Of a stretch of DNA of 64,000 nt, positions 2,837 to 60,695 are shown piece by piece. The first letter of the stretch is position 1. Every line of letters begins with the position of its first letter. This stretch comes from Chloropicon primus (lineage: Eukaryota): contig CP060772.1 in assembly GCA_023205875.1 (NCBI GenBank), forward strand, positions 310,001 to 374,000, read 5' to 3'. The notes under the pieces were generated by a model that was not told the origin of the DNA, made no database searches, and saw only the letters and a program-made list of their open reading frames with translations. The translations under genes and the position numbers were made by a program.

Positions 2837-3009
2837 CAGCATCAGCATCATTCGCATCAAGGCGGCGGCCGAGAGAGGGAGGGAGGGGCAGTGAGGTGAG
2901 TTTGATCAAAACATTGACGACGAGGTCGAAGAGGGACGAGGAGGGGGGGAGTTCATTTCAAAAGATCGCGTCTTTGTCTTTCGATAGACTCTACTCTTGA
3001 AAGAATGGC

Positions 3010-3230
3010 GGACATGAAAGTCCTTTTCTTTCCGTTTTGGAGACCATACATGATAATTGATGATCCTCGGCCGGTGATTATACCATGTTCAATATCACTC
3101 TACCAACGCTGAGCCAAAAGCTTTGAGGAATGAAAACATGTTACGGATCTATATGAGGCCTTGCGATGATCATCATGACAAAGTATCCGACGAACGGCGG
3201 TGGGGCACTACTTTCTTTGGAGTCATTGAC
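3010..3230 (+). ncRNA. Candidate intronic box C/D snoRNA cluster
   Basis: TGATGA at 3058-3063 and CTGA at 3109-3112, preceded by ATCACTCTACCAAC (antisense to the conserved 18S GUUGGUGGAGUGAU, one G-U pair). GTTACGGATCTAT at 3140-3152 is antisense to the conserved 25S AUAGAUCCGUAAC and is followed by ATGA and CGATGA. All lie inside a putative GTGAGT(2896)...CAG(3273/3276) intron. Confidence 0.5.
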
Positions 3231-3453
3231 AGCCCTCTTCCCTTCCTAGTTTTTGCCTTGTCTCTCCTCTCAGCAGGTCGTCAGTCGACGCCGCGCCTCT
3301 TGCGTTGGAATCGCCATCATTCGAAGCCAGTAACCGGCGGAGGGCAGCGCCAATGGATGGATGAGCGGGCCCAAGCTGCGATCCGGCATCGATTTGTACA
3401 AAGTAAATGAATCCATTTGTAGAATAAATATCATGATAGGGTCTTTGGATTGA

Positions 3454-4539
3454 TCAAGTGCAGCTCGAGCACGTGCAACGGAAGCCGTAGTCCCGCAGGA
3501 GGTCTTGCCTCTCCTCTGTCTCGAGCTCGAGCTGCTCTGCGTCGAGGTAAGAGCAAGTGATTTCCTCCCCCTCCTCGATGTCGCGAAGAGCGTAGGCGTA
3601 GACCTTGGAGCAAGGCGAGTAGTCTCCCTCCTCACCCTCCTCCTCGTCGGCTTCGTAAAACATGGAGACGTTCGGTTCACAGCTGTGGTTCATCATGCTG
3701 TGCAGGGGGTAGAACCCGGTTCCCTCCAATTCCCCGTTGTGCAAGAAGATCTCAAGATTGTTCAGCTCAAACATGCCAACCAGGGAGCCGTACACGTCCA
3801 GGCTGAACAAGCTGCCCTCCTCGCGTTCGCTCACGTTTCCAATTCGACTCTTCAGAGCAGCACGAAGCAGAGCGAAGGAATCCCCTGCCAGCTCTTTCAG
3901 CTGGGACCTGAACTCGTCCTCGTCCTCCACGTCGTGGGGAAGGGCCACCTGAGACCACCAAGGAGCTTTCCACCCGCACCGTATCGCATCCAAGAAAGAA
4001 GCGGCAGATGACTCCGCCGAGTCCGACCCCGCCCCGCTTCCTGTTTTGCTGCTTCCCTCCCCCTTGTCCTTGAGCAACGAAGCGACAATCATCGCGTAAA
4101 ACTGCGTGCGTGCGTGAACGAGGAGAAGAGGGGCGCGTCGTCAGCTCTCTGAACTTCTCATCATTTCTATCGAGACGTCGAAACCCGTAAGTCACCTTAC
4201 CCTTGCAGCGAGTCTGAAAATGTCGTTGGTGCTGTCGGCGTGGTCGTTGAACTCCCTCATGTAGTGCCTCCCGGGATCGTCTCCTTCGCGATCCCCTCCC
4301 GCGAGAGGGCCGCAGCACAGCAAGTGATGGTAGTGCCGCCACGCAACCGTTTCGCAGCTCGTGCAGCAGTAGCACTCGCTGCAACCGCCTCGGCAACGGA
4401 CGACAGCGCTTCCCGAGCCCACCCGTGAGCTCGATGATGACCCCGACACCCTGCCCCCAGCCGTGCCAAGAAACGCATCCCTGTCCCCCAAGGAACCTGC
4501 ACCGCGCGAGCGAGAGCGACGACGCCACGGGAACAAGTT

Positions 4540-4571
<32 letters not shown>

Positions 4572-4889: not shown

Positions 4890-5000
4890 CTGCCACACTG
4901 CCTCCTTCCTCTCTCAAAGCAAACCTGCGAGCGTCAATTCGTTCGAAACCAGACAAGCGACCACCCAATCGAATTACCGCGAGTCCATTCTTCGTTTGGC

Positions 5001-5162
5001 ACCTTCCCCTTCCCCTCTCGTCGCTCTCCTCGCCGCCACCGTCCTCGATAAGGTGAGCCACTCGGATGGTTTCTCCTTCACTTTCTGTCCTCTTCGTCGA
5101 TCCCTCGACCACTCCGAGCGTCGATTTGGCCAACCAAGGGCTCTTTGGAAAGCTCTCGCGAC
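5001..5162 (+). repeat. Dispersed ~160-bp promoter-region repeat, family A, copy 1
   Basis: Near-identical inverted copy at 16439-16600; degenerate partial copy at ~32895-32965. Confidence 0.9.
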
Positions 5163-5612
5163 GATTTTTTGTCTGACGTCGTCGACGCGAGTAATCGTCC
5201 ACAAAATAATCTCGCTAAGCCCTCTGCTTCACCCCTTGGCCGCCCTCTCTGTCTCACTGGCTGCTGCTCATCCCAAAGACAAATGTGAGCGGCGGAGAGG
5301 CCTGCTGATCCCAAGGACAAGTCAGGTGAGTTGAGCGCAATATGGAGGACGAGGACGGATGTAATGACGTCAAGAAACAGCTTGGAGGAATTTCATGTCT
5401 CGATATCTTTCCATAGAGCCGTCGCACGAAACAAATGGCGTCGTATTGAGCTTGAAACCTGAACATGATGATCATCTCGCTTCCTGTTTACTCCACTGGA
5501 TTCCAGGTTGGTGCGTTTGATGGCACAGGCGAGAGGGAGGCGAAGCAAGGGGCAGAGGAGTTACGCATCTCGTAGCATCACGTCGTGATCTTTCGAATGA
5601 TACCTCTCTTGA
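5134..5612. promoter_or_regulatory. GAAAG-N13-CTTTC dyad motif array in a divergent promoter (centres ~5159, 5400, 5583)
   Basis: GGGCTCTTTGGAAAG at 5138, CTTTCCATAGAGCC at 5407 and CTTTCGAATGATACC at 5590. The same motif recurs in most intergenic regions. Confidence 0.6.
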
Positions 5613-5970
5613 AGCGGTTGACTTCATTTTGAGGAAGCTGGAGACTGACGAGCGACTTCCCTCTGGGTGTTTGACAGAGGTCAACAAGGCAGGGGACTGA
5701 GGGGCACTGGCGGTGAGGAGGGCAAAGAGTCGGAGGCGTTGACCCATTTCAGGATTGGGACGCATCCTCATCAATCCCGAATCGGTCTTCTCTCTTTGCC
5801 ATCCCTTGGGTTTCATGAAGGTCCTCCTCGGTGACCGAGAACGGAGTGAAGCAAGAACAGGGAAGGAGGGCCTGCGGTGTGTGGGGGCGGCAGGTGTGGT
5901 CTGAGCCCAGGCCAAGCGTCGTGAGAACGTGATTGGTTTCCGCTGATCCAACACGAGAGCTTGGAGAAGG

Positions 5971-9756: not shown

Positions 9757-10441
9757 ATCCTCCTCCTCCTCCTCCTCAGTGACACCAACGCAAACAGGAC
9801 AAGCAGATGCTGATGATGAAGCCGGTGATGAAGCTGGTGGTGAGAGTGTTTGTGCTGCTGCTTCCTTCCAAGTCCTCGTGTAAGTCTGCAACCAGAACGA
9901 TGTGTTTGTTCCCAGGTCAAGTCAAGTCAGAACTCGTTGGAAACAGGAGGAGATGTTGAAGATGATGGCGGTCGGTGGCGATGTTTGCCCCTGCTGCTTC
10001 CTCTAGGTTCCCTCCTCGTCCTCGTTGTCTGTTCAACTCTGACATCCAAAAAAAGAGGTGGACAATGAGAATGAGAATTACGTTTCAGGTTGCTTCATCC
10101 TCCACACGACGCCATTTCTTTCAAGAGAGCAGTCAAACGAAAGAAGAAAGGACGAAGAATTGTATTATGCCAAGGTCCCTACACACCTGTGGACGCCACC
10201 CACCGTGTTCCCTCCACACAAGTTCTGCTCCTTTCGTTCCCGCGAAAAATTGTTAAAAAAAAAAAAGATTTTTCCTCCTTTTTTTTTGGCGGGAGATCCA
10301 ACGAAACCACAAACAAACGGAAGACGAACGCAAACCAAGGAAGGAGGAGGAGGAGGAGGTTTCAACAGCATTCGGTTCAGCATCTCCTTTCCCCTCCGAC
10401 GACAGACGACTCGGCATCCTCTTCGCCGATCGTGTCGCGCG

Positions 10442-10553: not shown

Positions 10554-11105
10554 ATGGAGGACAGTGACGGTGCGACGTGTTCCGACACGATAGAGGAGGA
10601 TCCGGTGGACGACTCGGGCGTTACGAGTTCGAAACGTTCGGTGGACAAGAAGTTCGTGGAAGCTTGTGACAAGTTGAGGCAAGGGATGCCGTTCCTGAAC
10701 TTGTGTGAAGAGGACACGGCGTTGTCGATCGCGGAGTTGAACTACCACTTGGTGGACAGCCGATGGCAGAGGAAAGAGATGCAGGATGAGACGAATCTGT
10801 CGGTTATACAGGGGTTCATCGTAACGGTCGCCAGGGAATACGACATGAGTGCGTTTGGTAGGTTCGACCACTTGTGCGATTTCATCGGGGCACAGGGTCT
10901 GCAGAGGGATGGCGTGCAGATCCTCGTCAAGTTCCAGGGAGGAGAACACCTCCTCCGTGGTGGAGGAGAGGCAGACAGTGAGGATTCCGAAAGTGACAAT
11001 CCTGGAACCGAAGCGGACACCGTTGTCCGAACCGAAACCCACAGTACACGGAGTCGCAGGTTAAGAAACTCGCGGAGATCTGCCCGCCGAACGAGAACGC
11101 GGTGA
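10554..11105 (+). CDS. Hypothetical orphan protein; the same frame resumes after a single TGA and runs to 11411
   Basis: ATG in GCCATGG context and protein-like composition. ORF 11118..11411 is in the same frame. Confidence 0.5.
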   Translation: MEDSDGATCSDTIEEDPVDDSGVTSSKRSVDKKFVEACDKLRQGMPFLNLCEEDTALSIAELNYHLVDSRWQRKEMQDETNLSVIQGFIVTVAREYDMSAFGRFDHLCDFIGAQGLQRDGVQILVKFQGGEHLLRGGGEADSEDSESDNPGTEADTVVRTETHSTRSRRLRNSRRSARRTRTR

Positions 11106-11875: not shown

Positions 11876-11959
11876 GTTGTTGTTGGTGGTGGTCCCTTGT
11901 CATCATCACTACCGTCAGCGACCCTCGTCGCCGCGATCATCGCTGCCGTCGACCTGATC

Positions 11960-12808
11960 CCCATCACCATCACCATCACCATCACCATCAGTCTGGATGA
12001 TCATTCTGGTCTCCGCCTCCCAGGCTGGTGTGTGAGAGAGAGAGAGATACTGAGTTGAGTCTGTATTCACTTACCCCTCTCTCCCTCCCTCCATCGCCAT
12101 CCCCATCCCCATCCCCATCCCCATCACCATCACCATCACCATCACCATCACCATCAGTCTGGATGATCATTCTGGTCTCCGCCTCCCAGGCTGGTGGTTG
12201 AGAGAGAGAGAGATACTGAGTTGAGTCTGTATTCACTTACCCCTCTCTCCCTCCCTCCATCGCCATCCCCATCCCCATCCCCATCCCCATCACCATCACC
12301 ATCACCATCACCATCACCATCAGTCTGGATGATCATTCTGGTCTCCGCCTCCCAGGCTGGTGTAGAGAGAGAGAGAGAGATACTGAGTTGAGTCTGTATT
12401 CACTTACCCCTCTCTCCCTCCCTCCATCGCCATCACTCCCTCCACCATCACCATCACCATCACCATCCCCATCACCATCAGTCTGGATGATCATTCTGGT
12501 CTCCGCCTCCCAGGCTGGTGTGAGAGAGAGAGAGAGATACTGAGTTGAGTCTGTATTCACTTACCCCTCTCTCCCTCCCTCCATCGCCATCACTCCCTCC
12601 ACCATCACCATCACCATCACCATCCCCATCACCATCAGTCTGGATGATCATTCTGGTCTCCGCCTCCCAGGCTGGTGTGAGAGAGAGAGAGAGATACTGA
12701 GTTGAGTCTGTATTCACTTACCCCTCTCTCCCTCCCTCCATCACCATCACTCCCTCCACCATCACCATCCCCATCACCATCCCCATCCCCATCACCATCA
12801 CCATCACC
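11960..12808 (-). repeat. Tandem array of five 157-166-bp units, each with (CATCAC/CATCCC)n, (GA)n and a canonical ~50-nt intron on the minus strand
   Basis: GTCTGGATGATCATTC at 11991, 12157, 12323, 12481 and 12638. The minus strand reads GGG|GTAAGTGAATACAGACTCAACTCAGTATC(TC)n...CCAG|CCTGGG in every unit. Confidence 0.9.
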
Positions 12809-13214
12809 TAATGTGCTCCAGATCTCCCGGTCGTCGGGCGGCTGCTGGGAACACGGCGAAGCGAAGGCGGAGAACGCAGCAAGCGGCGACGTCGAGGACG
12901 AGCGGAGGAGGGAGCGAAAGGCGGAGGGGAGGGACCACACGATTTAGCATCTCTTGATCTTTCCAAAGACCTCTCACTTGCACGAGGAAGCGCGAGAGTT
13001 TCGTTGCCATTCACGAAAAGATCCATCCTCCGGAAAAAGTTTGTCGAAAAACAAAACGAGTGACTTTTGGATCGAATTACGGGCGGAAGAGGGAGAGGAA
13101 GAGAGCGAGCGTCACACCATTGGAGAGAGAATCTCACGCTTGTTTGATTCGTAGGTCACTTGACGCTATTTTCGTGACGCATCGATCATTTTGTTTGAGT
13201 TCATTCCCATCAGC

Positions 13215-15475: not shown

Positions 15476-15960
15476 TCAGAGATCCGAGAGCGAGTTCCGC
15501 CAATTATTGTCCTGCTCCTCGTCGTCGTAGTCCTCGTCCTCGTCCTCGCGAGTGTCTCCCCTCTGCTCCTTCTGCCCCTCGAGAAGCCCTTCCCACTGCA
15601 GTCCCTCCTCCAGGGAGAGCGTCTGCTTCTGCCCCGCTGGTCCCACGCACTGGTACTCCACATGGTCAACCTCCTTGTAGTAAGGACCCAGCACAACCAT
15701 CCTCCTCAACTCACAGGACTTCTCACAGTCCCCTGAGTCCCACTGACAAGCCTCAGTGAAGCACTCCTTGTCACAGTGGCTGTCACCGATGAAAGCTTTC
15801 TTGCATCCTGGAGCACATTCACCGGGAAGGAGCTCCCGCCCGCCATCTCCCTCTCCCGCCTCTGCCACCTCTTCCACTTGGCCAAGGCAGGACAGGGACA
15901 GAGTGGTGGTGAGGAGGAGGAGGACACAGAGGAAGGATGATGATGGAGCTGATGCCGCCA
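15476..15960 (-). CDS. Small secreted protein with an LNR (Lin12/Notch) repeat; start codon unresolved
   Basis: ECAPGCKKAFIGDSHCDKECFTEACQWDSGDC is an LNR pattern. The in-frame upstream segment FLCVLLLLTTTLSLSCLG is signal-like. No in-frame ATG; a short upstream exon (ATG at ~16097) is possible. Confidence 0.7.
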
Positions 15961-16325
15961 GCTTGACCCTTCCAATTGTTCCAGTTTCACACCAATCGAA
16001 ATATCTTGTGATACAATTATAATCTATTGCGCTCCCTGTTCAAGCTGACTCCACCTCAACCCCTGATACCCTTCAAACTACCTTTCCTTCCTGCCATCCA
16101 ACAAACCAGAGGGAAAAGATCACCTTTCAGTCTCTCCCGTCCTCAACAGAGCGCCAAATGGGACAAGCGACGGCTCTATGGAAAGCTCACGACATGTTGC
16201 TTCCGCAAGTTGGTTTCCTTTCCGCATCCTCTCGTCGTCACCGTCGCTAAACGTACCTTGAAGTTGAAGTCCCCTCTGATGACTCACTCAATCCTGTCCT
16301 TGGGATCGAGAGCACTCTGAAATCA

Positions 16326-16367
<42 letters not shown>

Positions 16368-16438
16368 ACGGGTTCATCGATTGCTTGTGAACGAAGGCTG
16401 ACTCTTATCGAGATAAAGAGTGCGTCAAGCAAACGACT

Positions 16439-16600
16439 GTCTCGAGATCTTTCCAAAGAGCCCTTGGTTGGCCAAATCGACGCTCGGAGTGGTCGAGGGA
16501 TCGACGAAGAGGACAGAAAGTGAAAGAGAAACCACCCGAGTGGCCCACCTTATCGAGGACGGTGGCGGCGAGGACAGCGACGAGAGGGGAAGGGGAGGGT
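16439..16600 (-). repeat. Dispersed promoter-region repeat, family A, copy 2
   Basis: Reverse complement of 5001-5162 with few mismatches. Confidence 0.9.
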
Positions 16601-16737
16601 ACGGGACGAAGCGTTGACTCGTTATCTTTGTCCAACCTTGGTGCAAGGGGGGAACAGGGAGAAAGGGAGGGAGAGATAGAGAGAAGGGAATCCATCCAAG
16701 CATCCATCCAAGCATCCAGGTTCATCCAGGTGGTTGG

Positions 16738-18531: not shown

Positions 18532-18947
18532 GATGTTGATCTCAAGGTTAGGTCCTCTCTAATGAGCAAATCAGAGCCAAACGAAGAAAGCGACGGCTCT
18601 TTCGAAAGATCAAGAGATGAACTTTCTGGTGACGATCCGTCCTTCTGTCCCTTTCTCCTCCTGCTCGCGATACCTCCCCTCCTTTGCTCCCCTCCCTCCT
18701 CCTCCCACGATGTAGATCAATTCTTTCGTTACTTTTCTAAATCTCCACCAAATGGACCGATCTCGGGCTCTACGGAAAGATCACGATACTCTCTTCCCTC
18801 TGTTCCCCTTCCCTTCCCCTCCTTCTCCCCTTGTGCTCGCGATACCTCCCCTCCTTTGCTCCCCTCCCTCCTCCTCAGCAGAAGCCCAGAAGCGTAGTGG
18901 TGACGGCGCCACAGAACGGAGGAGGAGAAGGCGAAGAGGGCGAGAGG

Positions 18948-19929: not shown

Positions 19930-20474
19930 CTTTGTATTCTACTTTTGGCTTTTTGAAGAGCAAGGACCACGGGCGAGTCCGACCGACCGTACGCACCTGC
20001 AGTGCCTTCCCTCCTCGTCCCCGTTGCCAATCATCACGGCTCCCGCTCCGCTCGTGCACTCTCCTCCTCCTCACCAGTGCATCAGCATCATTCCTCCCAA
20101 GTGAGGGCATTTCAGAAAGAGCAAAAGATAGCAAGACGATCTGTTGGCGTCCTTTCTTCTCATCACCCTGCCTCCCGTCCTCCTCGTCTTCCAACCAACC
20201 AACTCCTTGCCACCTTCATCCACTCACTCATCCAAGAGCTCGGCCGTTATAATTCAAACTGGAAAACGCCAGAACTTCGTAACGGGCGGGCAACGCAACA
20301 GAGAGACAGAGAGACGAGGACGAGGAAGGGGAGGAGGAAGGGGAGGAGGAAAGGGAAGCTCCCGGTGCACCGCGTCGTGGCTTCTCTTCTCTTCCGGAGC
20401 AAGCTTCTCGTTAGAGAGTCAGAGTGTTCGCGAACGAGAGAACGAGAGAGAGAGAGAGAGAGAGAGAGACGGGG

Positions 20475-22263: not shown

Positions 22264-22530
22264 CTTCGTGACAAAGTGGACTACCCAAGTGAGGTCCTGG
22301 GCTCCTCACAGTGGAACCAGTGGGCCATTTCCTTCGAGTAAACACTCTAATGAAAGCTGATGAGAAGGAGATTCTGATTGTTTCTCTTCTCTCTTGCTTT
22401 GGCCCTCTCTTCCGTGCGTAATCAGGGGAGGAACTCCTTCGTGACAAAATGGACAACCATGCGAGGTCCAGGGCTCCTCACAATGGAAACAGTGGACCAT
22501 TTCCTTCGAGTGAACACTCTGATGAAAGAG
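22264..22530. repeat. Diverged local duplication, ~93-bp core with 173-bp period
   Basis: CTTCGTGACAAA.TGGAC...CCATTTCCTTCGAGT.AACACTCT.ATGAAAG at 22264 and 22437. Confidence 0.9.
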
Positions 22531-22701
22531 GAAGAGAAGCTGGTTCCAGTAGTGCCCTCCGTTGTTGCTTTACTCCCCTCCATCGGTAGCAATCTTCCTT
22601 CAACTTACCTCTGGTGCGCCACCTCCTTGAAATGCTTTGGTCCACAAGATGAAAATGAAAACCAAAAAACACAGAACACAGAAAACACAAGAAAATTCAT
22701 C

Positions 22702-22907
22702 GAAAGTCACAAGAGGAGGTGAGTTTGAGCGCGAAAGAGAAGCAAAGGTGGAGACTTGGAGCAAAAGATCCGGTCGTGGATGGAAGCTTGACCTCAAGAG
22801 CTTTCCATAGACCCCTCACTTGGCGAAGATGACGCTCGGGGGAAGATTTGACAACTGAAACCAGCTCGTTTTCTCCTATTCTGCAGTGAAGACAGGTGAG
22901 TTTGGAG
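22702..22907 (+). repeat. Dispersed ~205-bp repeat, family C, copy 1 (GT-AG intron + micro-exon-like cassette)
   Basis: Near-identical inverted copy at 52437-52640. Confidence 0.9.
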
Positions 22908-23368
22908 GCGGAGGGAAGTTCGAGGTTGGCACCCCGAGTCGTGGAGCTGGCACAGATGAAAGCATCACGTCATGATCTTTCCGTGGAGCATTCGCACGAA
23001 TGATTTGGTCCAGTGGTGAAGTTGTGAGAGACTGAAACGAGGCCTCTTTACTTTGGCTCTTGGGTCTCTGGCAAGGTTTCATACTTTTCCAGGGAGGAGG
23101 AGAGGAGGAGGAGGAGGCACAAGCGGTTTCCAGGGTTTGGAGACTGGTAGGGTACCTCTCCCACTTGGTTGCCTCACTCCCACTTGCTCTTCCTTCAGCT
23201 GGGGTGAACTTGGTCCTTGGCTAAAGCACAGCTGTACCTTGGAGTCAAGGAGGAAGGGGCAGAGGTGGTGGTGGTGGCCGTTGTCTGCCAAAGGTTCCGC
23301 CTTTGTTACCTTCTTGGGACTTGGTCCAGCGTAACGGGCTCGAGAGTAACGGCTGTGACGGTGGCAGG

Positions 23369-25001: not shown

Positions 25002-25020
25002 TGGAGTCACACAAATGCAT

Positions 25021-25370
25021 TCCAACTTGCGCTCGACGACAGACACGACAGGAGAAGGAAGAGGAAGAGGACACCAACACTGAGCGAGTGAGCGTCGTCC
25101 TCCATCGATCAAGAGAAAGAAGCAGAGAATGTGGTGGTGGTGGTGGTGATGATGGACAAGCACGAGTCTTGCTTCCATCTTCCAACTTGCGCTCGACGAC
25201 AGACACGACAGAAGAAGGAAGAGGAAGAGGACACCAACACTGAGCGAGTGAGCGTCGTCCTCCATCGATCAAGAGAAAGAAGGAGAGATGAAAGAGAGAG
25301 AGAGAGAGAGAGAGAGAGACAATGTTGTGTTGGTGGTGGTGATGGACAAGCATGAGTCTTGCTTCCATCA
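25021..25370. repeat. Tandem duplication with 160-bp period (~2.2 units) downstream of the GT32 stop
   Basis: TCCAACTTGCGCTCGACGACAGACACGACA at 25021 and 25181. Confidence 0.92.
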
Positions 25371-25724
25371 GGACGAGGAGGAGAGCGTCCTCTCGATGTA
25401 ACAGAAAACTTTTTTCCATTTTCCTCCAAATTGATTTCATTTCAATTTTCATTTTTTTCCCGGGAAGGCGGCTGACGAAAACCCAAAGGTGAGGAACGAC
25501 GAGGATGACGACGACGACGACGACCGAGAGGGCAAACCACTCGAGGAGGGAGGAGGTTCAACGCAACCGTTACGTTTTCCTCTTTCCATCGACCCCTCCC
25601 TCGAAAGAAACGGACCAGGGATGAGAATGCAAAAAGACTGATGAGTTGGATTGATTGATTTTTTTTTTCATCCTGCTGCTGATGGTTGATGGATGGTGAG
25701 CAGAGGGAGAAGAAACTTTTGAAG

Positions 25725-27231: not shown

Positions 27232-28012
27232 ACTCGCTACTAACTTAATTCACTTTTTTTTCAAGTCTGTCCCACCGCATTCCACTCGACGACGGCGGCG
27301 CTCATTCTATTGCTCCTGACGGCCCAATACAGGCATCTCTCCACATCCCAAGGGCAAGGTGGATCCTCTTGCTCGCTCCCCTCGTCACCGCCATCCTTCG
27401 AGCGTTACGCTCCCTCTTCCTAACGCTAACGCTTCGCTTCCTCACCCGAGCGTCACATCCTTCAAGAGAGGCTTCTTTCGAAAGATCAAGACACAGAGCT
27501 TCCCTCTGTTGCTTCTCCCTTCGCTACCTTCCTCGTCCTCGTCCTCTGCTTCCCTCTCTCTCTCCCTCTCTCCGCCTCTCTCTCGCTCTGCTCCGCTCTG
27601 CTCTCCCTCCAAAGAATCCTCACCACTGCATCGTTTCCTTCGAGCGAGGGCTCGTTCGAAAGAGCAAGACCAGACGTTTCGACTTGCTTCCCTTTCCTCC
27701 TCTCCTCTCCTCCGCCGCGCGCTCCACTCCTCACCTTCTCTCTCGCAACCGCGCGCTCCTCGCCTCAGGCCAGTGGCGGCTGCAGACTGGCGACGGCTGG
27801 AGTAACGAAGAGGTGAGTGTTCGAGGAGGCCTCACGGTCGGCGAGAGCAAAAGCAGAGGGGGTGTGACACACCAATGGATGCGTTTCGTTCTCATCTTTC
27901 GAATGAGTGGTCGCATGAAGGGATTGCGTTTCGGATGAACTGACTCGATTCCATTTTGTTTGGGATGGACAAGCAGGAGCAGGAGCAGGCCAAGGAGTAA
28001 GAGCAGGAGAGG

Positions 28013-32123: not shown

Positions 32124-33243
32124 CCTCTCCTTCCTAAACCTTCCTCAACCGCGCCAGCAATGAAACTTGCCGATGCCAAGGGAACGAATCGCCGACGGAG
32201 CGATGTCCTGGGATCAAAACCGAGCAGGAGAAGAGGACGAACCGCCGCGTGGGAACCTTCCCAAACACGAAAACGCTTCCACTTTCCAATGGGAACAACA
32301 ACTTCAAGCAGATCAAAATCACGTCAAATGGAACACTTCAAGTCGAACCGGAGTACCAAATCTTTCCAGCGACCACTCAATCGAAAGATGAGGAGACGTA
32401 GATTCTATCCGTGACGCTCTTCGCCGCTCCAGGACTCGACACCGTTCCCTAACGCATCCTCAAAGTCACTCAAACCCGTTGCTGAGAGCAATCCGATCAA
32501 ACATTTGTCAGTCTACCATCTTCACCAGGGCACCATTCTTTTCCATGGAGAGGTCTACGGAAAGATCTCGAGGTAACGGTTCCGCTCGTACCCGTAACGC
32601 ACGCTTCACACTTCAATCCTCGATGGTATTTCCCGCCCCAACCTTCGTGTCTGCCAATCGTTCTTCGCGGGAGAAAAACTTTGAATAGAATAGAGCTCTC
32701 TCTCTCTAGGGAAAAAGCAGTAAGACTCAAGGGGCGACACGAAGAGGGCTTCGGAGGACGGAGGAGAGCGATAGAGGAGGCGAGGAACACATCATTCCAA
32801 AGGTCTTGTCGAGAGCTTTCCAACGATACCTTACTTGACCCATTTGGTGCCCGGAGTGATCGATTAGACTCGAGTGTTTGAGAATTTGAACCAGAAAACA
32901 CCCGAGAGCTACACCTTGTCGAGGACGGTGACGGCGAGGACGGTAACGAGAGTGGGGGAGGAAGGTGTAGAACGAAGCTTTGACTCGAGGTCTTTCGATT
33001 GGTGGGTCGCACGCTTGGTTTGGTTACCGGAGTGTCGATTAAGGTCCGGTTCTTCGGAGCGAGAAGAGCAGAGGGTGGCCAAGGTGTGAAGCAGGGAGGG
33101 CAGAGAGGTGTGAGGTCGTGAGGGTTCTCGGTGGCAGTGGGGGAAAGAGGTTGGCGGGAGGTGGTTTGGATTGATTGAGTCGTTCACTGGACGGCGGGTG
33201 GGTCGTGTTTCCTTTTTGTTGGAGGGAGAGGGAGGGAGGTGGT

Positions 33244-35616: not shown

Positions 35617-35821
35617 TCCATTGGCGATCGACGACGACTTACGACGACTTACGACGACGACTTTTTGCAGCATCCATAAGTAATGATGTATTCCATTTCA
35701 CGATTCATATAGGCAAGTGGAAACAATGCGGGAGAGGGAGAGTGCAAGAGATCCACAGCAAGCAAGCAAGCGCTGGCAATAATCCGATCCACCATCACCA
35801 TCACCAGGATTATTCCATTCC

Positions 35822-36170
35822 TCACCGATCCATGATGTGATCCCTGTCACCATTCCTCCCAAGTGAGGGCTCTTCGGAAAGAGCAAGAGACAACGCATCC
35901 ATCCATCCATGACCCCTCTCCCCCTCCCTCCCCGTCCCTCCACCATCACCCCCCTCCTTCCACCCCATCATCATCATCATCACCTCTCTGTCTGTCTCCT
36001 TGCCATGATCCCTGTCACCATTCCTCCCAAGTGAGGGCTCTTCGGAAAGAGCAAGAGACAATACATCCATCCATCCGTGATCCCTCCTCCCCCTCTCTCC
36101 CTGTCTCTCCACCATCACCCCCTCCTTCCACCCCATCATCACCATCACCTTCACCTTCACCTTCACCAGC
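35822..36170. repeat. Dispersed + tandem repeat, family B (two ~168-bp units)
   Basis: GATCCCTGTCACCATTCCTCCCAAGTGAGGGCTCTT.GGAAAGAGCAAGAGACAA twice. The same unit occurs twice at 55540-55860 and degenerate at ~20085-20130. Confidence 0.92.
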
Positions 36171-36478
36171 AGCTCAAGATTTGGCCGTTCGACGAGACGA
36201 GACGAATTTCACGTCAAAATCTGGGAAATAAAAGCGTCGACGCGTCGGTGGATCGGGTCGGTGACGAGACTCCCTCGTGGTGGCGGAAGTCGGCGACGAG
36301 GACGGAGGCGGGAGGTGCGGAGGACCGCGAAAACCGACGGAACATCTCGCGAGCTTTCTGTCGAACCCTCACTCGACGGAATACGCCGACGACGACGGGA
36401 ATTCTTGGTCAAACCCTCGCTTGTGTGTGGCCGTTACGAGGACAAGGGGTTCGTAACCGATCGGAGCGGAAACCCACG

Positions 36479-41746: not shown

Positions 41747-41917
41747 AAGCATTGAGAACGAACGTTTTGCTTGCACCTTTCACAAAACCATAAAACACAA
41801 ACCACTTTTTTTTTCTTAACAACTTTTTTACGTTCAATATTCAATCCTTGCCAAGGTGGCATCTTGGAGAGAGGCCAGAAGGAGAGAGAGAGGGAGGGAG
41901 TTGCCAAGGAGGTGAAG

Positions 41918-45749: not shown

Positions 45750-46679
45750 TCAGTACTTGAGCCTCGCCACCCTCTTGAAAGACAAGTGCTGATCGGCGTA
45801 ATCGGCCTCGATCTCGTCCAGAACCGATTCGAGGTGTCCCTTCCCTATCACCCCGACGACCTCGGTGCAGTTCGTCACGGCCTTGGACCTCTTGAGAGTC
45901 CACGCCATGTACCGGTCCCTCTCCTTGAAGAGCGGCTCGACCAGGCCAGGAAACGTCTCAGTGACCTGCTCGAAGACGAGGTCGAGGTTCAGTTCGGACT
46001 CCATGGTCGAGATTTGCGTCGCGACTTCCCTGCTCACTTGGTCCTGGTTGACAAGCGTGCTGGCCAGCACCAAGGCTAGCTTCAGCCGCTCCTCCATCGT
46101 CAAGTTGACCCAGCACCGCTTCAGCGTGATGTCGATCGGTCGATCCCCAAGCACGACCTCGGCGTCCACGTCTCTCGCGCTCTTCACGGCCTGCCGAAAC
46201 TCCACGCCGGGAACCACGTTGAGCTCCCGGCCGATGCGATCCGCTTGGGACGAGAGCACCTTCCTCAGAATCCATTTGGTCGTCCTTTCCACCCAAGTTT
46301 CTGTCTCCAAGCTCGAGCGCGAAGGGGGAGACGCCAAGGCGCCGCTCGCGCTTCTGTCCTCGGGCCCCTCCCCTTGCCCAAGGGGCGCCAAATTCAACGC
46401 TCCAGAACGCTTCTTACAGAGCTCCACCACAACGGCCTGCGGCCTCACCGCCTCGATCACCTCCCTCACGTCTGCCGCCGATGCCTCCGACACGTGGCAC
46501 GTCCCGAGGACAAATATTGTTTCAGGCTCCCGCGGCTCCCCTTGTCCCTTCCAGAACCTCCTCTCCCTCCTCCTCTCATCGTACTCGGCCGGCTTCCGAC
46601 TCACGCGAAGCACGCCTCTTCTGACCAGTGGAGCCAGCCTCGGATACTTCCTCTCCACAAACTTGAGAGAATTATCCAT
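45750..46679 (-). CDS. TraB/PrgY family protein (TrabD-like)
   Basis: IFVLGTCHVS..SA..V...I....PQAVVVELC..R, PGVEFR.A, LGDRPIDITLKR, ERDRYMA, VVGVIGKGHL. Confidence 0.92.
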   Translation of the reverse strand: MDNSLKFVERKYPRLAPLVRRGVLRVSRKPAEYDERRRERRFWKGQGEPREPETIFVLGTCHVSEASAADVREVIEAVRPQAVVVELCKKRSGALNLAPLGQGEGPEDRSASGALASPPSRSSLETETWVERTTKWILRKVLSSQADRIGRELNVVPGVEFRQAVKSARDVDAEVVLGDRPIDITLKRCWVNLTMEERLKLALVLASTLVNQDQVSREVATQISTMESELNLDLVFEQVTETFPGLVEPLFKERDRYMAWTLKRSKAVTNCTEVVGVIGKGHLESVLDEIEADYADQHLSFKRVARLKY

Positions 46680-47037
46680 TCAGATGAAGACCCGAGCACC
46701 TTTGACTCCCCTCGTCCTAATGCAGAGCCATGGCGAGCGTCTTCCACCCTCTGCTTCACCCTCTGCCTCTCCTACCTGGTGACCAGCACAGACAAAAACC
46801 AACGCCAAAAAGTCAGTCATTCCTTCCTAGCAACTTCACCAAAGCTTCGTTTCGGCCGTGCGGGTGCGCTTTCGAACGCTAGCGAGATGCGTTTTCGAAT
46901 GACCCGTCGTTCTCTTCCTCTTCTCCTCACCTCGTTCCCTCCTTGTCACGAGAAAACCATCATCCGAGGCAAAAACGTTTGACAAAAGTCAGTCCATGAA
47001 GCACAGAAACTTCACCAGGGCACCAAACTCGTCATGG

Positions 47038-47516
47038 GAGGCATCGTTGGAAAGATCTCGAGAAGATCTTTCCATGGATACCTCACTCGCCTCCATCGCG
47101 CCTCACCTTGACCCCCTTGTCCCCCCTTTCGCGTCCCGATGGCCTCTCTCCTCCTCTCCTCTCTGCGCACCACGAGTTCCTCGGCAAAACGCCGCCTTCT
47201 GCGCGGAGGAGGAGCTCGAAGAGAGCTCGAACTTTGACAGAGTCCAGAGGACGCATCCGTGCGTGAAACGAGTCGACGAGTGGATCAATCGAAAGAGATC
47301 AAGAAGATCTTTCCATCGATACCTCACTCGACCCAAACCTCGCTCCATCACGTTCTAAAGCTTTGGTTTGATCCGACCGTGATTGACGAATTGGTTCCGA
47401 CGAGCAACACAACTGTTCCGAATCGTAACGCACGCGTTCTGTCGTTACACGAGTCGCCGTGAGGATCGTTCGAAAGAGCGTCTCGCGATCTTTCCATTGA
47501 TACCGTACTCGACCCC
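47038..47516. promoter_or_regulatory. Three complete GAAAG-N13-CTTTC dyad motifs (centres 47061, 47302, 47483) in the TraB/NAA15 divergent promoter
   Basis: GAAAG ATCTCGAGAAGAT CTTTC; GAAAG AGATCAAGAAGAT CTTTC; GAAAG AGCGTCTCGCGAT CTTTC. Each is followed by CA..GATACC(1-2 nt).ACTCG. Confidence 0.7.
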
Positions 47517-47558
47517 ATTGTGTTCTCATCGCGTCCTCAAGTTTGAGTTTGATTGAAG

Positions 47559-51935: not shown

Positions 51936-52436
51936 ACTGCTTCAACAACGTCCTTCCTCAACCCCCTTGACAGAGACACGATCAACCGATGACACAAGCA
52001 AGCAACAACGGGCTTCCTGCTTCAAGCACGGGGAAGGAGAGGAAACACAAACAAACAGAAACGAGAGATGCTTTTGGTTTCAGTTCCTCCATTCAAGTCA
52101 TGCAAGTCAGGACTCTTTCCAATGCATTGAAGCGTGACGTTCCCGAGTTGAGGTGTGGCATGTAGGTACTCTTTCGAAAGCTTGTGACATGATGCTTGCA
52201 TCTAGCACTCCCCTTCACCGCTTTCCCCTCCTCTGATCCTCCTGGATCCGTCCAAACTTACTTATGGCAATGGCATCAACACAAACGCGACAAGAGAAAA
52301 CCACGAATAAGTCGGTCAAATCTTCACCAGGACGCCATTCGTTTCGAGACCGATATCTTTCGAAAGCTTACGGCCAGGCGCGTTCGTTCATGCCCAACAC
52401 ACTCTACCTATGCCTCCACTTCTGACACCCCAAAGT

Positions 52437-52640
52437 CTCCAAACTCACCTGTTTCACTGCATCAAAGAGAAAACAAGCAGGTTTCAGTTGTCAAATCTTC
52501 CCCCGAGCGTCATCTTCGCCAAGTGAGGGGTCTATGGAAAGCTCTTGAGGTCAAGCTTCCATCCACGACCGGATCTTTTGCTCCAAGTCTCCACCTTTGC
52601 TTCTCTTTCGCGCTCAAACTCACCTCCTCCTGTGACTTTC
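52437..52640 (-). repeat. Dispersed repeat, family C, copy 2
   Basis: Reverse complement of 22702-22907. Confidence 0.9.
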
Positions 52641-52844
52641 TGAATCTTTTCCTGAGGCCACGCAATAGTCAGGACGTCTAAAGAGATTCTCGACGAACCC
52701 GAGGATGGATGACTCATCATCACCCTCTTTCCCTTTTTGCCTCCCGCGATCCTGGAAACCTGAACCTAAAAACCTAAACCCTAAAACCTTGGGGCTCCGG
52801 AAGAAAAACTTGTCCTTGGGATCAGAACCCCACAAGGGAATGAT

Positions 52845-53350
52845 CCTCTCCTCTCCTCTTCCTCTTCTTCGTGGATGTTGATGTTGATGTTGGTGTTGAT
52901 GAGAAGAGCGTCCTCGCTTCTCCACTCTCTCCACGTCCTCTGGATCCATCCAGATGATCCCTCCCCTTTCCTCTTCTTCGAGGATGTTGATGTTGGTGTT
53001 GGTGTTGATGAGAAGAGCGTCCTCGCTGCTCCACTCTCTCCACGTCCTCTGGATCCATCCAGATGATCCTTCTCCTCTTTCCTCTTCTTCGTTGATGTTG
53101 ATGTTGGTGTTGGTGTTGATGAGAAGAGCGTCCTCGCTTCTCCACTCTCTCCACGTCCTCTGGATCCATCCAGATCATCCTCTCCTCTCCCCTCCTTGGA
53201 AGGAGGCTCTCCTCTTTCCTCTTCTTCGTGGATGTTGATGTTGATGTTGGTGTTGATGAGAAGAGCGTCCTCGCTGCTCCACTCTCTCCTCCTCCTCTCC
53301 ATCCAGATGATCCTCTCCTTGATGTTTGTTCCTGATGTTGATGTTGATGA
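52845..53350. repeat. Tandem repeat, ~4 units of 109-137 bp with (GATGTT/GGTGTT)n
   Basis: GAGAAGAGCGTCCTCGCT at 52901, 53010, 53121 and 53258. Confidence 0.9.
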
Positions 53351-54179: not shown

Positions 54180-54849
54180 GACGATTGGATGAATGGATTG
54201 GATTGATAGCAAAACCCTAAAAAGCAAAATCGAGGCAAGATTGTCAGTTAGCCTCCCTCTCTTCCTCACGAGAACGCCATTCGGTTCGAGCGAGGAGTCA
54301 TTCGAAAGAGGAGGACAAGACGCTTCCACCAGTCCCTCCCTCTTCCATACTCTTCCACCTTTCCATCGCTCACATCGCCATCAAACTTGCATCTCACCTC
54401 GCCTCCTCCTCGATAACGCTTCGTCCTCCTCGATAACGCTTCGTTTGGATAAGCGAGTGACTGACAAGGAAGGAAGGTGTCTGGGCTTTGGAAGGTCAAG
54501 GAGAGCGAAGGAGAGCGAAGGGAAGAGAGAGGGAAGGATCATTGGAAAGTACGTCTCACTGGCTTTCCAAAGACACCTCGATCGCTTCGTTTGGCCCTCG
54601 GAGTGATCAGAAGGAGTTGCTTGAAGTTGTTCCTCGAAGCCTTTTGGAGCGAAAGGGAGGGAGGGAGGGAGAGAGAGGGTGGGTGGGAGGGTACTGGGCG
54701 GCGCTTGGGAGGGCATACGACCTTCACTTCTCCGAATCACACACGCAGCGAGGAAAGGGGAGCGTGAGCGGCGAGTTCGAGGAGAGGAAAGGTCTCTGGC
54801 GCATCACAAGAGACGCGACGAACTCGGGCGTTAATCTTCCCAAGAGTAT

Positions 54850-55446: not shown

Positions 55447-55539
55447 TGGGACGTTTGCTTTCGGGGGCTCAGACGGACCACTACCAAGTGGCGGTGGAGG
55501 CCACCACTCCTCCTCTTTCGCCCGGGCGAGGAGCATTCA

Positions 55540-55860
55540 TCATCACCATCACCTCTCTCTCTGTGTGTCTCCTTGCCATGATCCCTGTCACCATTCCTCC
55601 CAAGTGAGGGCTCTTTGGAAAGAGCAAGAGACAAGGCATCCATCCATCCATGACCCCTCCTCTCCCTCTCCCCCTCCCTCCCATCACCCCCTCCTTCCAC
55701 CCCATCATCATCACCATCACCTCTCTGTGTGTCTCCTTGCCATGATCCCTGTCACCATTCCTCCCAAGTGAGGGCTCTTTGGAAAGAGCAAGAGACAAGG
55801 CATCCATCCATCCATGACCCCTCCTCTCCCTCTCCCCCTCCCTCCCATCACCCCCTCCTC
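55540..55860. repeat. Repeat family B (two ~164-bp units)
   Basis: Same unit as 35822-36170. Confidence 0.92.
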
Positions 55861-55956
55861 CCTCCTCCCTCCTCCCTCTTCCCTCTGACAAAATCCACGT
55901 CATCCGAGAGAGAGAGAGAGAAGCGTCATATCGTCCTCGTCCTCGTCGCCATCGCC

Positions 55957-57476: not shown

Positions 57477-57557
57477 GCAAGAGCCCGAGACTCATGTCGA
57501 AAAGGTTTTGTGACCCTTTGATAGAGAAAAAGTCATACATTTTTATCCCGAAACGCC

Positions 57558-60182
57558 CTAGTGCACAAGCCCAACGCCTCCAAGTCTTCCCGTTTGCTGG
57601 TTCCGCAGTACGACCGTCGAGCCCTTTGGCATCCACTCCGCCCAGTGAAGGAACTTGAGGTCCACGAGCAACGGCAAGCTGTAGAAATGAATCTCCTCCT
57701 GCTTCAGAGATACGATGTCTTCCAGCGCCTGGTACACTTGAGCCGAAACGCCAGACTCCCCCAGATCACTCAGGGCTCTGCAAGATGCGATGGCAGCGGC
57801 TTGCCTGATGCTCCCGCAGTGGACCACAACGGTGCTCCCTTTCAGAACTTTGGACAAGAATGTGATATCATCGATGACCGAGAGGTCGCTGGATTCCCCG
57901 CAAAAAGAGTCCTTCACCAGCTTCATAACGGCCCTGAAGCTTCTGGCGGCGGAGGGGGTAAGCCCCCTGAGCAGGACGGTGCCCTTCTTCGTGGGCGGGG
58001 AGCCTCCACTGGACGGGGAGAAAGAATGAGAGTGAGGAGGAGAACCAGCCTTCTCGGCGGAAGCCTTGCAAGGAATGTTGATGCTCGAGGATTCCTCCGG
58101 CTTGCCGCTTCCTGGTGCTTTGCCACTGCCACCGAGATCGTGCAGGTCCAATCGGGCCCTCTCAGATGACTCCCACCGGAAGCCCCGCTTCTCCCCCTCG
58201 TGGTGCTTGAAGTCCAAGGCCAGCGTGCCCGTTTGCCCCACGGCGAGTTTGTTCACCGGAACTTGGGATCTCTCGATGCTCTTGACTCGCACGGGGGAGA
58301 AGCTGCCGTCCTCCATCGGACCAAGCAGCAGCTGATAGCCCACCTTGATCTTGCCGCTGAGAACAGTACCGAACAGCACGTGTCCAACAGCCGGGACCTC
58401 GAAGGTCTTGTAAACTTGAAAATGCAGCAGCTGCATCTGCTGCTGCTGTTGCAAGGCCTCACTCGGTTGAGATTGCTGGGCATGGTTGCCTGCGAGAGAA
58501 TCAGAGAATTCAGGGGCAGGCGACTTTGTGTTGCTGTTCCTCCTTCTCCAGTCTCTCGGCCTGAGCTTCTTCAGGAATGCGTGGAGCAAGGTCATGCCAT
58601 CGCCGCTCACGCAGCTCACGCCGAGCACGGGGACAATGGCATCCGCAGCTGCGCCACCGCACTCTCCACTGCTTGCGGGCTGCTTTCCTAGCCTCTTTCC
58701 CAACTCTCTGGCCTGCTCAATGGTTTGCACCAACTCGGTACAACTGTTCTCACCAAGCAATGCTTTCACCTCCTTGTACACGTGCAAGGACTCCAAGCTC
58801 TTGGCATCCTCCTCACCTTCCAGGGACGAGGATGGCGTCAGGTCAATCTTGGTCATCACAACAAAGATGGGAGCGCCGAGCACTCTGGCCAATGCAGCGT
58901 GCTCCCTTGTCATTTCAGAAACCCCTTCCTGGGCAGACACGATTAGCATCACGAAATCAGGGACCAAGCACGTCAAGCCGTAGCAGGTTGTCTTGAGGTA
59001 CCTCTCGTGGCCGGAGAGGTCAAACAGCCGCAGCATCTTCCCCGCTTCCCTCGACATCTCCACGGGGGAAAGGGGCCAGCAAACGCTGTCGGTTTGGTAA
59101 TTCAGGCAAAGGCCGTTCTTCCCGTAGGCCAAGACCTCGTGAGCGATGCTGCTGGTCCTCCCGCTCTCCACCTCGTGCCTGTGGGTGAACACCCTCGACC
59201 GCGCCTGTCCCATCCCATTGCAAAGCAGCGGCTTCCTGTGCTCCCCGTGCGTCAGCACACTCATCAGTGTGCTCTTTCCCGCATCGTGGGCCCCGCACAT
59301 GGCCACTCGCAGCTCCGTGTAACTATACGCGTGCTGCTTCGGAATCAGTCTTACGTGGACCGAGGCGTACTTCCCTTCGTAACCCTCGAGAAGCGTTACC
59401 TTCATCGTGAAGAGCTCCCCGCCTAGGAAGGGATCCAGGCTAAAGTCCTGGCCCGCAGCGTGCCTCTCGATGAGCCCGTCCAAAAAATCAAAGGAACCCT
59501 CCCCAAAAGGCCGAGGCTTGGCGCCGCCGCTGCCCGCTAGAATCGCACACATCGAGATGAGCGTCCCCAGCGTCTCCTTGAGCTCCCTTTGAACGAGGCC
59601 TCTGCAGAAACCGTCGTCCTGCACTCCAAGGTAATACACGCAAGTTCCCCTCTCGTCCCCGCTGGACTCGGAGAACCGGAACTTCATCTGTGTCACGAGA
59701 TGCTCCAACCGATTGCACGAGACCTTCACCAGCTTCAGCTTGTATTCCACGTTCCCTTCAGGGTTCTCCCTCCCCAACCAAAGCTTCGGACCCGACCGAC
59801 GACGCTCTCCCCGTCCTCTCCCGCTCCCCGACGTCGTCGAGACCGATACTCCACCGCAAGAGCAGACGCTCTCGCCACCCCTCCCAGCTCCCCCCTCCTC
59901 CTGATCCCTCCTCGTGGAGGACGACGGTCCCACCCCATGGCTCCCACACTGCCTCGCCCTCCCCTCCCTCTTCTTCCTCTCCCTCTCCCTGCACTTATCC
60001 AGTTTGCTCTCCCTCCTTTCCACCTCCTCGTCCAAGTTCACCGTAAAAGCAAACGTCCTCCGTGATCCTGTGCCACCCAGACCTTCACCAAGTGAATCTC
60101 CGCCGCCCTGGCCCTCCTCTGCCGCCCCTTTGCCCTCCTCCTCCTCCACTCCCCTCTCCAGGCTCGCACCTTGTCCACCCAT
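57558..60182 (-). CDS. GTP-binding protein 1/2-like translational GTPase
   Basis: EGNVEYKLKL N-domain, G1 GAHDAGKST, HRHEVESGRTSSI, DLSGHERYLKTT, TKID and EF-Tu-like domains II/III. Start is either 60182 (MGGQGAS) or 60362. Confidence 0.92.
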   Translation of the reverse strand: MGGQGASLERGVEEEEGKGAAEEGQGGGDSLGEGLGGTGSRRTFAFTVNLDEEVERRESKLDKCRERERKKREGRARQCGSHGVGPSSSTRRDQEEGGAGRGGESVCSCGGVSVSTTSGSGRGRGERRRSGPKLWLGRENPEGNVEYKLKLVKVSCNRLEHLVTQMKFRFSESSGDERGTCVYYLGVQDDGFCRGLVQRELKETLGTLISMCAILAGSGGAKPRPFGEGSFDFLDGLIERHAAGQDFSLDPFLGGELFTMKVTLLEGYEGKYASVHVRLIPKQHAYSYTELRVAMCGAHDAGKSTLMSVLTHGEHRKPLLCNGMGQARSRVFTHRHEVESGRTSSIAHEVLAYGKNGLCLNYQTDSVCWPLSPVEMSREAGKMLRLFDLSGHERYLKTTCYGLTCLVPDFVMLIVSAQEGVSEMTREHAALARVLGAPIFVVMTKIDLTPSSSLEGEEDAKSLESLHVYKEVKALLGENSCTELVQTIEQARELGKRLGKQPASSGECGGAAADAIVPVLGVSCVSGDGMTLLHAFLKKLRPRDWRRRNSNTKSPAPEFSDSLAGNHAQQSQPSEALQQQQQMQLLHFQVYKTFEVPAVGHVLFGTVLSGKIKVGYQLLLGPMEDGSFSPVRVKSIERSQVPVNKLAVGQTGTLALDFKHHEGEKRGFRWESSERARLDLHDLGGSGKAPGSGKPEESSSINIPCKASAEKAGSPPHSHSFSPSSGGSPPTKKGTVLLRGLTPSAARSFRAVMKLVKDSFCGESSDLSVIDDITFLSKVLKGSTVVVHCGSIRQAAAIASCRALSDLGESGVSAQVYQALEDIVSLKQEEIHFYSLPLLVDLKFLHWAEWMPKGSTVVLRNQQTGRLGGVGLVH

Positions 60183-60412
60183 GAAAACACACAAACACAA
60201 GTCAGAAACCTTTGCAAAGAGCGTTACTCGTAACGTCCGACGGCACTTTCGAAAGAGGAGAGCATGAAGATTCGTGACAACTGACTTCCTCCCCCCTCGG
60301 GTCGATAACACGAGGACAGTGTCCTGCTCACCTAGACGGATGCCATCAATGACGCCAGCCATCTTAGCCTTCTCCCTTGGCTTTTCGTCCTCAGAGCGTC
60401 ATTCTTTTCATG

Positions 60413-60695
60413 CGAGGGCTCGTTGGAAAGCTCGCGACAAGATCTTTCCCGTGGTTCTTCTCCCTTCGCTTCCCTCGTCCTCCCTCGCCGCTCAGCTCTG
60501 CGAACGCGCCGCTCCTCAAGAGACGTCGTCCTCTGGCGAGAGAGAGAGAGAGAGCAAAGGGACTGACTGGAGGAGGAGGAGGAGGAGGAGACGAAGGAGA
60601 ATATTGTGAACGATTGGAAGATATTTAGAAAACTTGGAAGCATTCGTTCGAAAGATCGTCTCGAGATCTTTCCAGTGATACCTTACTCGACCCCT
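60413..60695. promoter_or_regulatory. Two complete GAAAG-N13-CTTTC dyad motifs (centres 60437, 60661) in the GTPBP/PIG-T divergent promoter
   Basis: GAAAG CTCGCGACAAGAT CTTTC and GAAAG ATCGTCTCGAGAT CTTTC CAGTGATACCTTACTCG. Confidence 0.7.

Follow-up and report, generated by a model that had tools for sequence, protein, structure and literature searches.

In a 64-kb stretch of the Chloropicon primus genome (64,000 nucleotides of contig CP060772.1, positions 310,001 to 374,000, hereafter the window), nearly every promoter carries one or more copies of a long directional DNA element. The motif is real and far beyond chance. The promoter modules built around it are best read as DNA-encoded positioning units for the -2, -1, +1 and +2 nucleosomes, spread by nucleosome-length duplication. 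We assign this reading a probability of about 0.7, with nucleosome occupancy deduced from the sequence.

The element has one strong arm of about 55 bp. When the sites are aligned by their stronger half, the rough consensus is CCAWW-n5-CRAGYGAGG-n2-TC-n-WTS-GAAAG-MTCWCGASA-n6-TTCS. The motif is pseudo-symmetric about a single base, and its information spans about -66 to +69. An oriented matrix, with strong sites defined as those scoring above 15 bits, gives 44 matches at 40 centres in the window, against 0.03 per Markov-shuffled window. Retraining adds centre 4982 and brings the total to 41 strong sites, none of them in coding exons. Cross-validation, in which each half of the window was scanned with a matrix trained on the other, recovered 21 and 20 centres. 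Of the 41 sites, 39 have an exact GAAAG and only 7 an exact CTTTC; both half-sites together are likewise exact in 7. When the columns of these two pentamers were masked in the search, GAAAG is still exact in 40 of 46 cross-validated matches and CTTTC in 9, so the invariance of GAAAG is not a selection artefact.

A first-pass annotation of the same DNA had described an inverted-symmetric motif of about 45 bp with a fixed spacer, in some 25–30 copies. All 28 centres that it listed carry GAAAG in the proposed register on one strand. The spacer is indeed favored: GAAAG-N13-CTTTC occurs exactly eight times in the window, compared with 0–1 for each other spacer of 8–19 nt, and one of the eight (centre 20605) lies inside coding sequence and does not score as motif. 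The symmetry does not hold, as a single arm is conserved. A palindromic site for a dimeric transcription factor was rejected for the lack of two conserved half-sites and of a short footprint, and the dimeric factor offered as an alternative in that annotation is weakened, because one half-site is conserved and the information is far wider than a normal footprint. A heat-shock element was also rejected; its nGAAnnTTCn spacing, compared by eye, is incompatible with the consensus. A second pseudo-symmetry axis lies at -19.5 (motif positions -39 to 0), where weak opposite-strand matches are found 39 bp from eight sites with no excess pairing.

The placement of the sites follows gene starts. Start-to-stop spans cover 74.7% of the window, but 40 of the 41 sites lie outside them and the remaining site is in a first intron. 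Sites are present in 17 of the 18 intervals with a gene start (10/10 divergent and 7/8 tandem) and in 0 of 10 convergent intervals. No strong copy was found in coding exons, internal introns or convergent intervals of the window. The first-pass annotation called the motif intergenic and noticed it only outside coding exons. It is not purely intergenic: an annotated first intron holds one site, and further sites fall in predicted introns of the 5' untranslated region (5'-UTR). Eight sites face the 3' end of a neighboring gene instead of a gene start. The arrangement is therefore symmetric about the gap between modules and does not require a coding gene on each side.

The gene map behind these counts, with 29 genes, was drawn by hand from open reading frames (ORFs), Pfam hits and inspection. 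Exact protein look-up confirmed 10 of 10 and then 4 of 6 proposed proteins of the window, one miss being an alternative start. Look-up also revised two boundaries, placing the TraB start at 46679 and the 10554 gene's end at 11105; the changed stretches contain no sites. From the 5971 gene to Nop14 the accession numbers advance by 13, equal to the step in the map. Near-identical members of the protein clusters bear locus tags of chromosome 19. The ORF at 571–1470 has no whole-protein record as drawn, and across a long intron (1471–2530) there may be an upstream exon near 2528, where GTGAG follows an ATG. For the LNR gene (15476–16100, minus strand), the public 96-residue model skips an LNR domain and a signal-peptide-like stretch. 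Both are present in the ORF and in relatives, so this model is probably mis-annotated.

Orientation and spacing are highly regular. The strong arm points outward from a central gap, and head-to-head pairs are absent (0, null 6.99). Same-strand neighbors are 164–186 bp apart in 15 of 15 cases (null mean 0.78, maximum 6, 20,000 placements). After four tandem duplicates are dropped, the 11 remaining steps are 175–186 bp with a median of 177 bp. Back-to-back pairs are separated by 241, 250, 259, 220, 238, 291, 241, 241 and 224 bp, with eight of the nine at 220–260 bp (null 0.66). Every spacing given in the first-pass annotation is correct. The pairs that it saw in six divergent promoters are confirmed, and they also occur in a seventh (22535/22794) and in the promoters of tandem genes (27669/27889 and 36056/36347). 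Four of its shorter steps (171, 172, 168 and 164 bp) were made by local tandem duplication and are thus not independent measurements. Inner and outer sites differ at -12, with G in 13 of 19 inner and 2 of 11 outer sites (Fisher p = 0.02). No 177-bp compositional wave is visible beyond about +350 bp. The modules are listed in Table 1.

Table 1. Modules and related features in the window. Module spans are the centres ±73; "+" marks a conserved arm that is read on the + strand, facing left.
Feature	Positions	Strand	Centres and remarks
Module pair	2663..3044		2736 (+, weak), 2971 (-); back to back, 235 bp
Divergent promoter, SET gene / 5971 gene	4909..5656		4982+, 5159+, 5400-, 5583- (177, 241, 183 bp); the two "-" sites have predicted donors (-74, -72)
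Upstream of FAD oxidoreductase gene	9878..10223		10150+, weak 9951+
Modules before start codon 13215	12879..13207		12952-, weak 13134- (182 bp)
Divergent promoter, LNR gene / HAD gene	15936..16692		weak 16009+, 16192+, 16442-, weak 16619- (183, 250, 177 bp)
Between PWI and LSM12 genes	18542..18859		18615+, 18786+ (171 bp, partly tandem duplicate)
Upstream of 20475 gene	20053..20199		20126+, facing away from 20475 gene
Divergent promoter	22290..23043		22363+, 22535+, 22794-, 22970- (172, 259, 176 bp); predicted tandem 5'-UTR introns, micro-exon between
Upstream of fumarylacetoacetate hydrolase gene	25502..25648		25575-
Tandem-gene promoter of Nop14	27418..27962		27491+, 27669+, 27889- (178, 220 bp); "+" pair faces 3' end of upstream gene
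Divergent promoter, mitochondrial carrier / CPAP	32321..33058		32394+, 32571+, 32809-, 32985- (177, 238, 176 bp)
Upstream of laminin-G protein gene (start 36479)	35815..36420		35888+, 36056+ (168-bp tandem duplicate), 36347-
Divergent promoter, TraB / NAA15	46812..47556		46885+, 47061+, 47302-, 47483- (176, 241, 181 bp); NAA15 start codon 76 bp past last centre
Upstream of epimerase/dehydrogenase gene	52114..52621		52187+, 52373+, 52548+ (186, 175 bp); predicted donor at -74/-75 of each
Divergent promoter	54242..54629		54315+, 54556- (241 bp)
Upstream of acyl-CoA dehydrogenase gene	55556..55866		55629+, 55793+ (164-bp tandem duplicate), facing away from gene
Divergent promoter, GTPase / Gpi16	60189..60734		60262+, 60437+, 60661- (175, 224 bp); start codons 75, 76 bp past inner centres
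GTPase gene first intron, 162 nt	60170..60331	-	centre 60262 inside, 69 nt after donor and 92 nt before acceptor; predicted, matched by annotated protein P0158

The sequence around the motif has a helical rhythm that is one nucleosome wide, extending from about -90 to +85 relative to the motif centre. Over -73 to +73 in 35 aligned sites, the best period of WW dinucleotides (W, A or T) is 10.3 bp, with SS (S, G or C) in antiphase. WW peaks are near -76, -66, -54, -35, -27, -14, -6, +5, +13, +57 and +68. Such rhythms mark rotational settings of nucleosomes (10.64898/2025.12.12.693854; PMC7706728). After de-duplication to 32 sites, the amplitude of WW minus SS at 10.2 bp is significant relative to jittered controls in 16 of 17 windows centred from -80 to +80, the exception being 0, and it is at the null level in windows at +90 to +140 and at -120. 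In each of the two flanks beyond the matrix, 26 of 32 sites show the phase that a dyad at the motif centre would give (p = 1.5e-4 and 7e-5). Among 13 sites not listed in the first-pass annotation, 11 show the rhythm (p = 8e-4). A generic 147-bp rotational score places the best dyad at offset +1 (0.131). WW dinucleotides fall half a turn from a nucleosome dyad. The invariant AAA of GAAAG, at -10 to -8, is half a turn out of the WW phase, suggesting that GAAAG is read by a protein other than the histones.

The near-invariance of GAAAG could also mean that the motif is the site of a sequence-specific factor or complex, which replaces a nucleosome or sits in the linker and phases nucleosomes secondarily. 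Contacts between histones and DNA do not require such near-invariant bases. The persistence of GAAAG under masking (40/46) fits a factor site, as does the inner/outer difference at -12, and HIM-17 on promoters derived from MITEs (miniature transposable elements that carry inverted repeats) offers a precedent (10.1101/2022.01.21.477252). However, an informative arm of 55 bp is too long for the 30-bp linker implied by 177-bp steps, and the second half-site is exact in few sites. The rhythm is centred on the motif and ends at about ±90, where the linker model puts nucleosome centres. We consider a factor site unlikely.

Splice signals and start codons lie at the predicted nucleosome edges. Removal of 10 duplicate copies from the 46 strong and weak sites leaves 36 independent ones. 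Seven of these have GTRAG at -76 to -72 on the outward strand, where 0.68 is expected, and none has it there on the inward strand. The clustering has p = 4e-6, or about 1e-4 after correction for 34 windows. A branch-like YTRAC is present at +52 to +70 in 9 of the 36. A simple intron rule was applied to the 16 sites that have a donor. In 12 it predicts introns of 161–215 nt, among them 22719–22885, with a 146-nt alternative in one case, and in the other four it predicts no intron. One predicted intron was checked and it matched: the annotated GTPase P0158 omits exactly 60170–60331, which contains centre 60262. Donors at -75 would imply a first exon inside the gap. The confirmed start codons closest past a centre are those of the GTPase (75 bp), NAA15 (76 bp) and Gpi16 (76 bp, in the transcriptome model), which puts them at the predicted nucleosome edge; for the other start codons the nearest strong facing site is 124–394 bp away. 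About 120 bp upstream of the inner centres, at the midpoint of the gap, the purine-rich side passes to the opposite strand, and this skew flip fits putative start sites within the gap. Micro-exons of 4–9 nt are predicted between successive motif-bearing 5'-UTR introns at 22886–22894, 52450–52457 and about 5507–5510.

Since the sites are oriented away from the gap, and predicted introns hold many of the copies, the motif might instead act in RNA, as a hairpin or splicing signal of 5' leaders and first introns. Against this, complementarity within the sequences is no higher than in column-permuted controls for either axis (p 0.77–0.86), by which selection for a hairpin or cruciform was rejected. 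No Rfam match reaches the gathering score, and an Rfam RNA or tRNA identity was discarded. In addition, eight of the 41 sites face a neighbor's 3' end, and a 10.2-bp rhythm is a property of the double helix. An element acting in RNA is thus highly improbable.

Some copies are recent. The segment 22692–22907 is a 95% copy of 52437–52648, the unit region of 55629/55793 is a 91% copy of 35838–36132, and 16423–16621 is a 90% copy of 4980–5178. The breakpoints differ between copy families, and inspection by eye revealed no fixed ends, terminal (inverted) repeats or target duplications in these copies. Across 820 pairs of sites, core identity averages 54%, while the flanks are near random (28% vs 26% for shuffled sequence, and 35% vs 31%). 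Given this core, these flanks and the differing breakpoints, the copies were not seen to trace to decayed ends of one transposon, an outcome that would have refuted the first-pass interpretation. A foldback element was rejected as well, since two modules placed back to back resemble each other no more than a random pair does (core 0.57 vs 0.54, flanks 0.27–0.31).

Length polymorphism in the genome has the same unit size. We used the heterozygous indels of the published Supplementary Data 8 (PMC6731263), matching the core on up to 400 characters per table cell. Of 73 indels of at least 100 bp, 25 measure 162–193 bp, with a median of 180 bp (5.2 expected from a power-law baseline, p = 4e-10), and seven measure 336–389 bp (2.6 expected, p = 0.018). 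A 7-base core, on either strand, is found in 9 of the 25, one of them doubtful by eye, where about one is expected. Further core-bearing indels are 153, 199, 274, 354, 361 and 386 bp long, those of 361 and 386 bp having two copies each. In the polymorphic units the motif is at the start, middle or end. Six shorter indel rows and one 2.7-kb row match the 7-mer without the longer motif, as judged by eye. Core-bearing indels are on chromosomes 5, 6, 7, 9, 11, 13, 14, 18 and 19, indicating that the motif occurs throughout the genome and that its gains and losses in steps of nucleosome length continue. A search of Supplementary Data 2 of the same paper by locus tag gave no match.

Other repeats were noted alongside. 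About five tandem copies of a 157–167-bp unit occupy 11938–12806. On the minus strand each copy has a donor-like GTAAGT, so that the array forms a nucleosome-length exon-intron repeat without the motif. Motif-free tandem duplications are also present at 25020–25369 (160 bp) and 52840–53349 (109–137 bp), and a published 219-bp heterozygous deletion matches the latter by eye. A short interstitial run of telomere-like CCTAAA(AA) units, a unit given in PMC6731263, lies between two genes at 52757–52792. Supplementary Data 8 of PMC6731263 also lists a pair of heterozygous insertions, each about 2.7 kb long, on chromosomes 3 and 6. Their starts are identical, suggesting an active mobile element.

The proposal of the first-pass annotation that the motif marks nucleosome dyads gains support at the sequence level from the 10.2-bp rhythm, the donors at the edge, start codons at least 75–76 bp away and the indel peak near 180 bp. 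Each module would wrap one nucleosome, with its dyad at the motif centre or one helical turn from it. Two inner modules about 240 bp apart would leave an open gap of about 95 bp, in which bidirectional transcription would start, and the outer modules, about 177 bp further on, would hold the next nucleosomes. Many modules would serve as first introns, with the donor at the nucleosome entry edge and the branch point and acceptor at the exit side. GAAAG would face away from the histones and would likely be read by a protein such as a remodeler, a linker histone or a transcription factor. Duplication of a single nucleosome repeat, together with copying from one promoter to another, would spread the modules; as such a duplication preserves phasing, it would presumably be tolerated. 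A more far-reaching version holds that a base-specific module writes the exact -2, -1, +1 and +2 positions at almost every promoter: a 601-like sequence with an outward GAAAG handle for a dedicated reader, often a nucleosome-long first intron, that has spread through the genome in duplications of nucleosome length since the lineage parted from C. roscoffensis. This full version is tentative, and we hold it to be possible but doubtful.

Several observations weigh against positioning by the modules. Convergent intervals are short (30–414 bp), which weakens them as a control. Of 28 gene starts, seven lack a strong facing site, and the promoter region of strumpellin (41747–41917, 171 bp), the sole exception among the 18 intervals, contains T-runs and no motif. 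The spacing test windows were derived from the values of the first-pass annotation, so the null counts of 0.78 and 0.66 are somewhat generous, and the 15 same-strand steps include, besides the four tandem duplicates, two more that are copies of other pairs. Dyad offsets of -9 (0.128) and +11 (0.119) score nearly as well as +1, and the translational dyad is therefore not fixed. The core is missing from 16 of the 25 nucleosome-length indels, which means that the length rule is wider than the motif. In yeast, the translational positions of promoter nucleosomes are reported not to be encoded in the sequence (10.64898/2025.12.12.693854). A weak CG period of about 184 bp in coding DNA is not phase-locked to the motif (Rayleigh p > 0.08). 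This period, from 11 long coding stretches (28,176 nt), has z = 4.4 relative to synonymous-codon shuffles and was reached by 2 of 300 of them; it is suggestive only, as 16 dinucleotides were scanned and an equal score was obtained for TT at 140 bp. The CG period is reminiscent of the methylation of linker CG sites reported in Mamiellales (PMC5082852).

The motif is also missing from a related locus. A metagenome locus resembling C. roscoffensis (L001) keeps the gene order, and by eye its NAA15 hardly differs from a named Chloropicon protein. The motif is absent from both of its orthologous promoter regions (matrix score -3.7 and core 1.3, against 21–33 in the window), so at this one locus, NAA15, the genus does not need it. 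The NAA15-based search gave no locus in viral contigs and 80 in metagenomes, of which only L001 is close to Chloropicon; over these 80 eukaryotic loci (846 kb) no matrix match exceeds 9.5. A 41-bit pattern that matches 10 sites in the window has no match in metagenome or viral contigs and one in prokaryote genomes (L081), taken as chance; a shorter pattern also has none in viral contigs.

Absence from a congener locus is what would be expected if the copies were neutral relics of a MITE or introner family inserted in the linkers of 5' regions, with the spacing a by-product of element length. The recent near-identical copies at distant promoters and the intron-like units with donors at a fixed -72 to -76 offset point the same way, and introners are described as preferring linkers (PMC9860276). 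However, a 54% core within near-random flanks is not expected of neutral decay. Breakpoints vary between families without the terminal features of a transposon, polymorphic units hold the motif at varying places, and internal introns and convergent intervals have no strong copy. Neutral relics alone are a very poor explanation; an origin from a transposon followed by selection would be compatible with nucleosome-positioning modules.

Whether a genome can encode exact nucleosome positions is a long-running question, and the natural signals known so far are weak and statistical. We found no description of this motif in the literature, where supplements and subscription papers could still mention the repeat; the main texts of two Chloropicon genome papers (PMC6731263 and PMC12301720) use "promoter" 0 times and "motif" 0 times and once. 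The C. primus modules are probably a case of DNA-encoded promoter nucleosome architecture of an unusually explicit kind. An alignable nucleosome-wide module in a cultured, fully sequenced 17-Mb alga allows predictions at the base-pair level for dyads, start sites and splice sites. Through the module, chromatin units are connected with intron boundaries and with the lengths of segregating indels. It also makes natural positioning sequences available and gives engineering of the alga a promoter grammar.

The Widom 601 and satellite positioning sequences have one strong and one weak arm, a single-bp pseudo-dyad and flexible helical-repeat steps. The likeness, drawn from this general description, is to a single laboratory-selected sequence in the case of 601, whereas the modules are a natural, dispersed family at promoters across the window. 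Introners of Micromonas and Aureococcus are similar in being intron-like units with ends predicted in linker DNA and in being gained and lost as units, as far as the available account describes them (PMC9860276). They form near-identical families throughout genes, while flank identity here is 28–35% apart from a few recent copies, the units are limited to 5' regions (1/41 within a start-to-stop span) and 29 of 36 lack a donor at -72 to -76. The CERP2/CELE2 germline promoters, derived from MITEs and bound by HIM-17, likewise have divergent and tandem motifs at many promoters with an adjoining 10-bp periodic tract, and they are lineage-restricted, as the absence from L001 may suggest for the present motif (10.1101/2022.01.21.477252). 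In the portions of that report consulted, however, paired motifs are 10–30 bp apart instead of 177 and 240 bp, and thousands of non-promoter copies and transposon ends are described, against 0 of 41 sites in coding exons or convergent intervals of the window and no fixed ends seen here. The closest match in chromatin terms is the class of promoters with WW-periodic +1 and -1 nucleosomes, described for germline and ubiquitous promoters of C. elegans and also in fly, zebrafish and yeast (PMC7706728, here and below, as far as its text was available). The 10-bp WW periodicity with antiphase SS over one nucleosome length was tested here and is present. In those promoters the nucleosomes flank an open, often bidirectional centre, with start sites just upstream of the +1 edge; the corresponding gap in C. 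primus is predicted from sequence. Their signal is statistical, whereas the C. primus module is an alignable, base-specific unit with an invariant GAAAG, a second or third repeat and splice donors at its edge.

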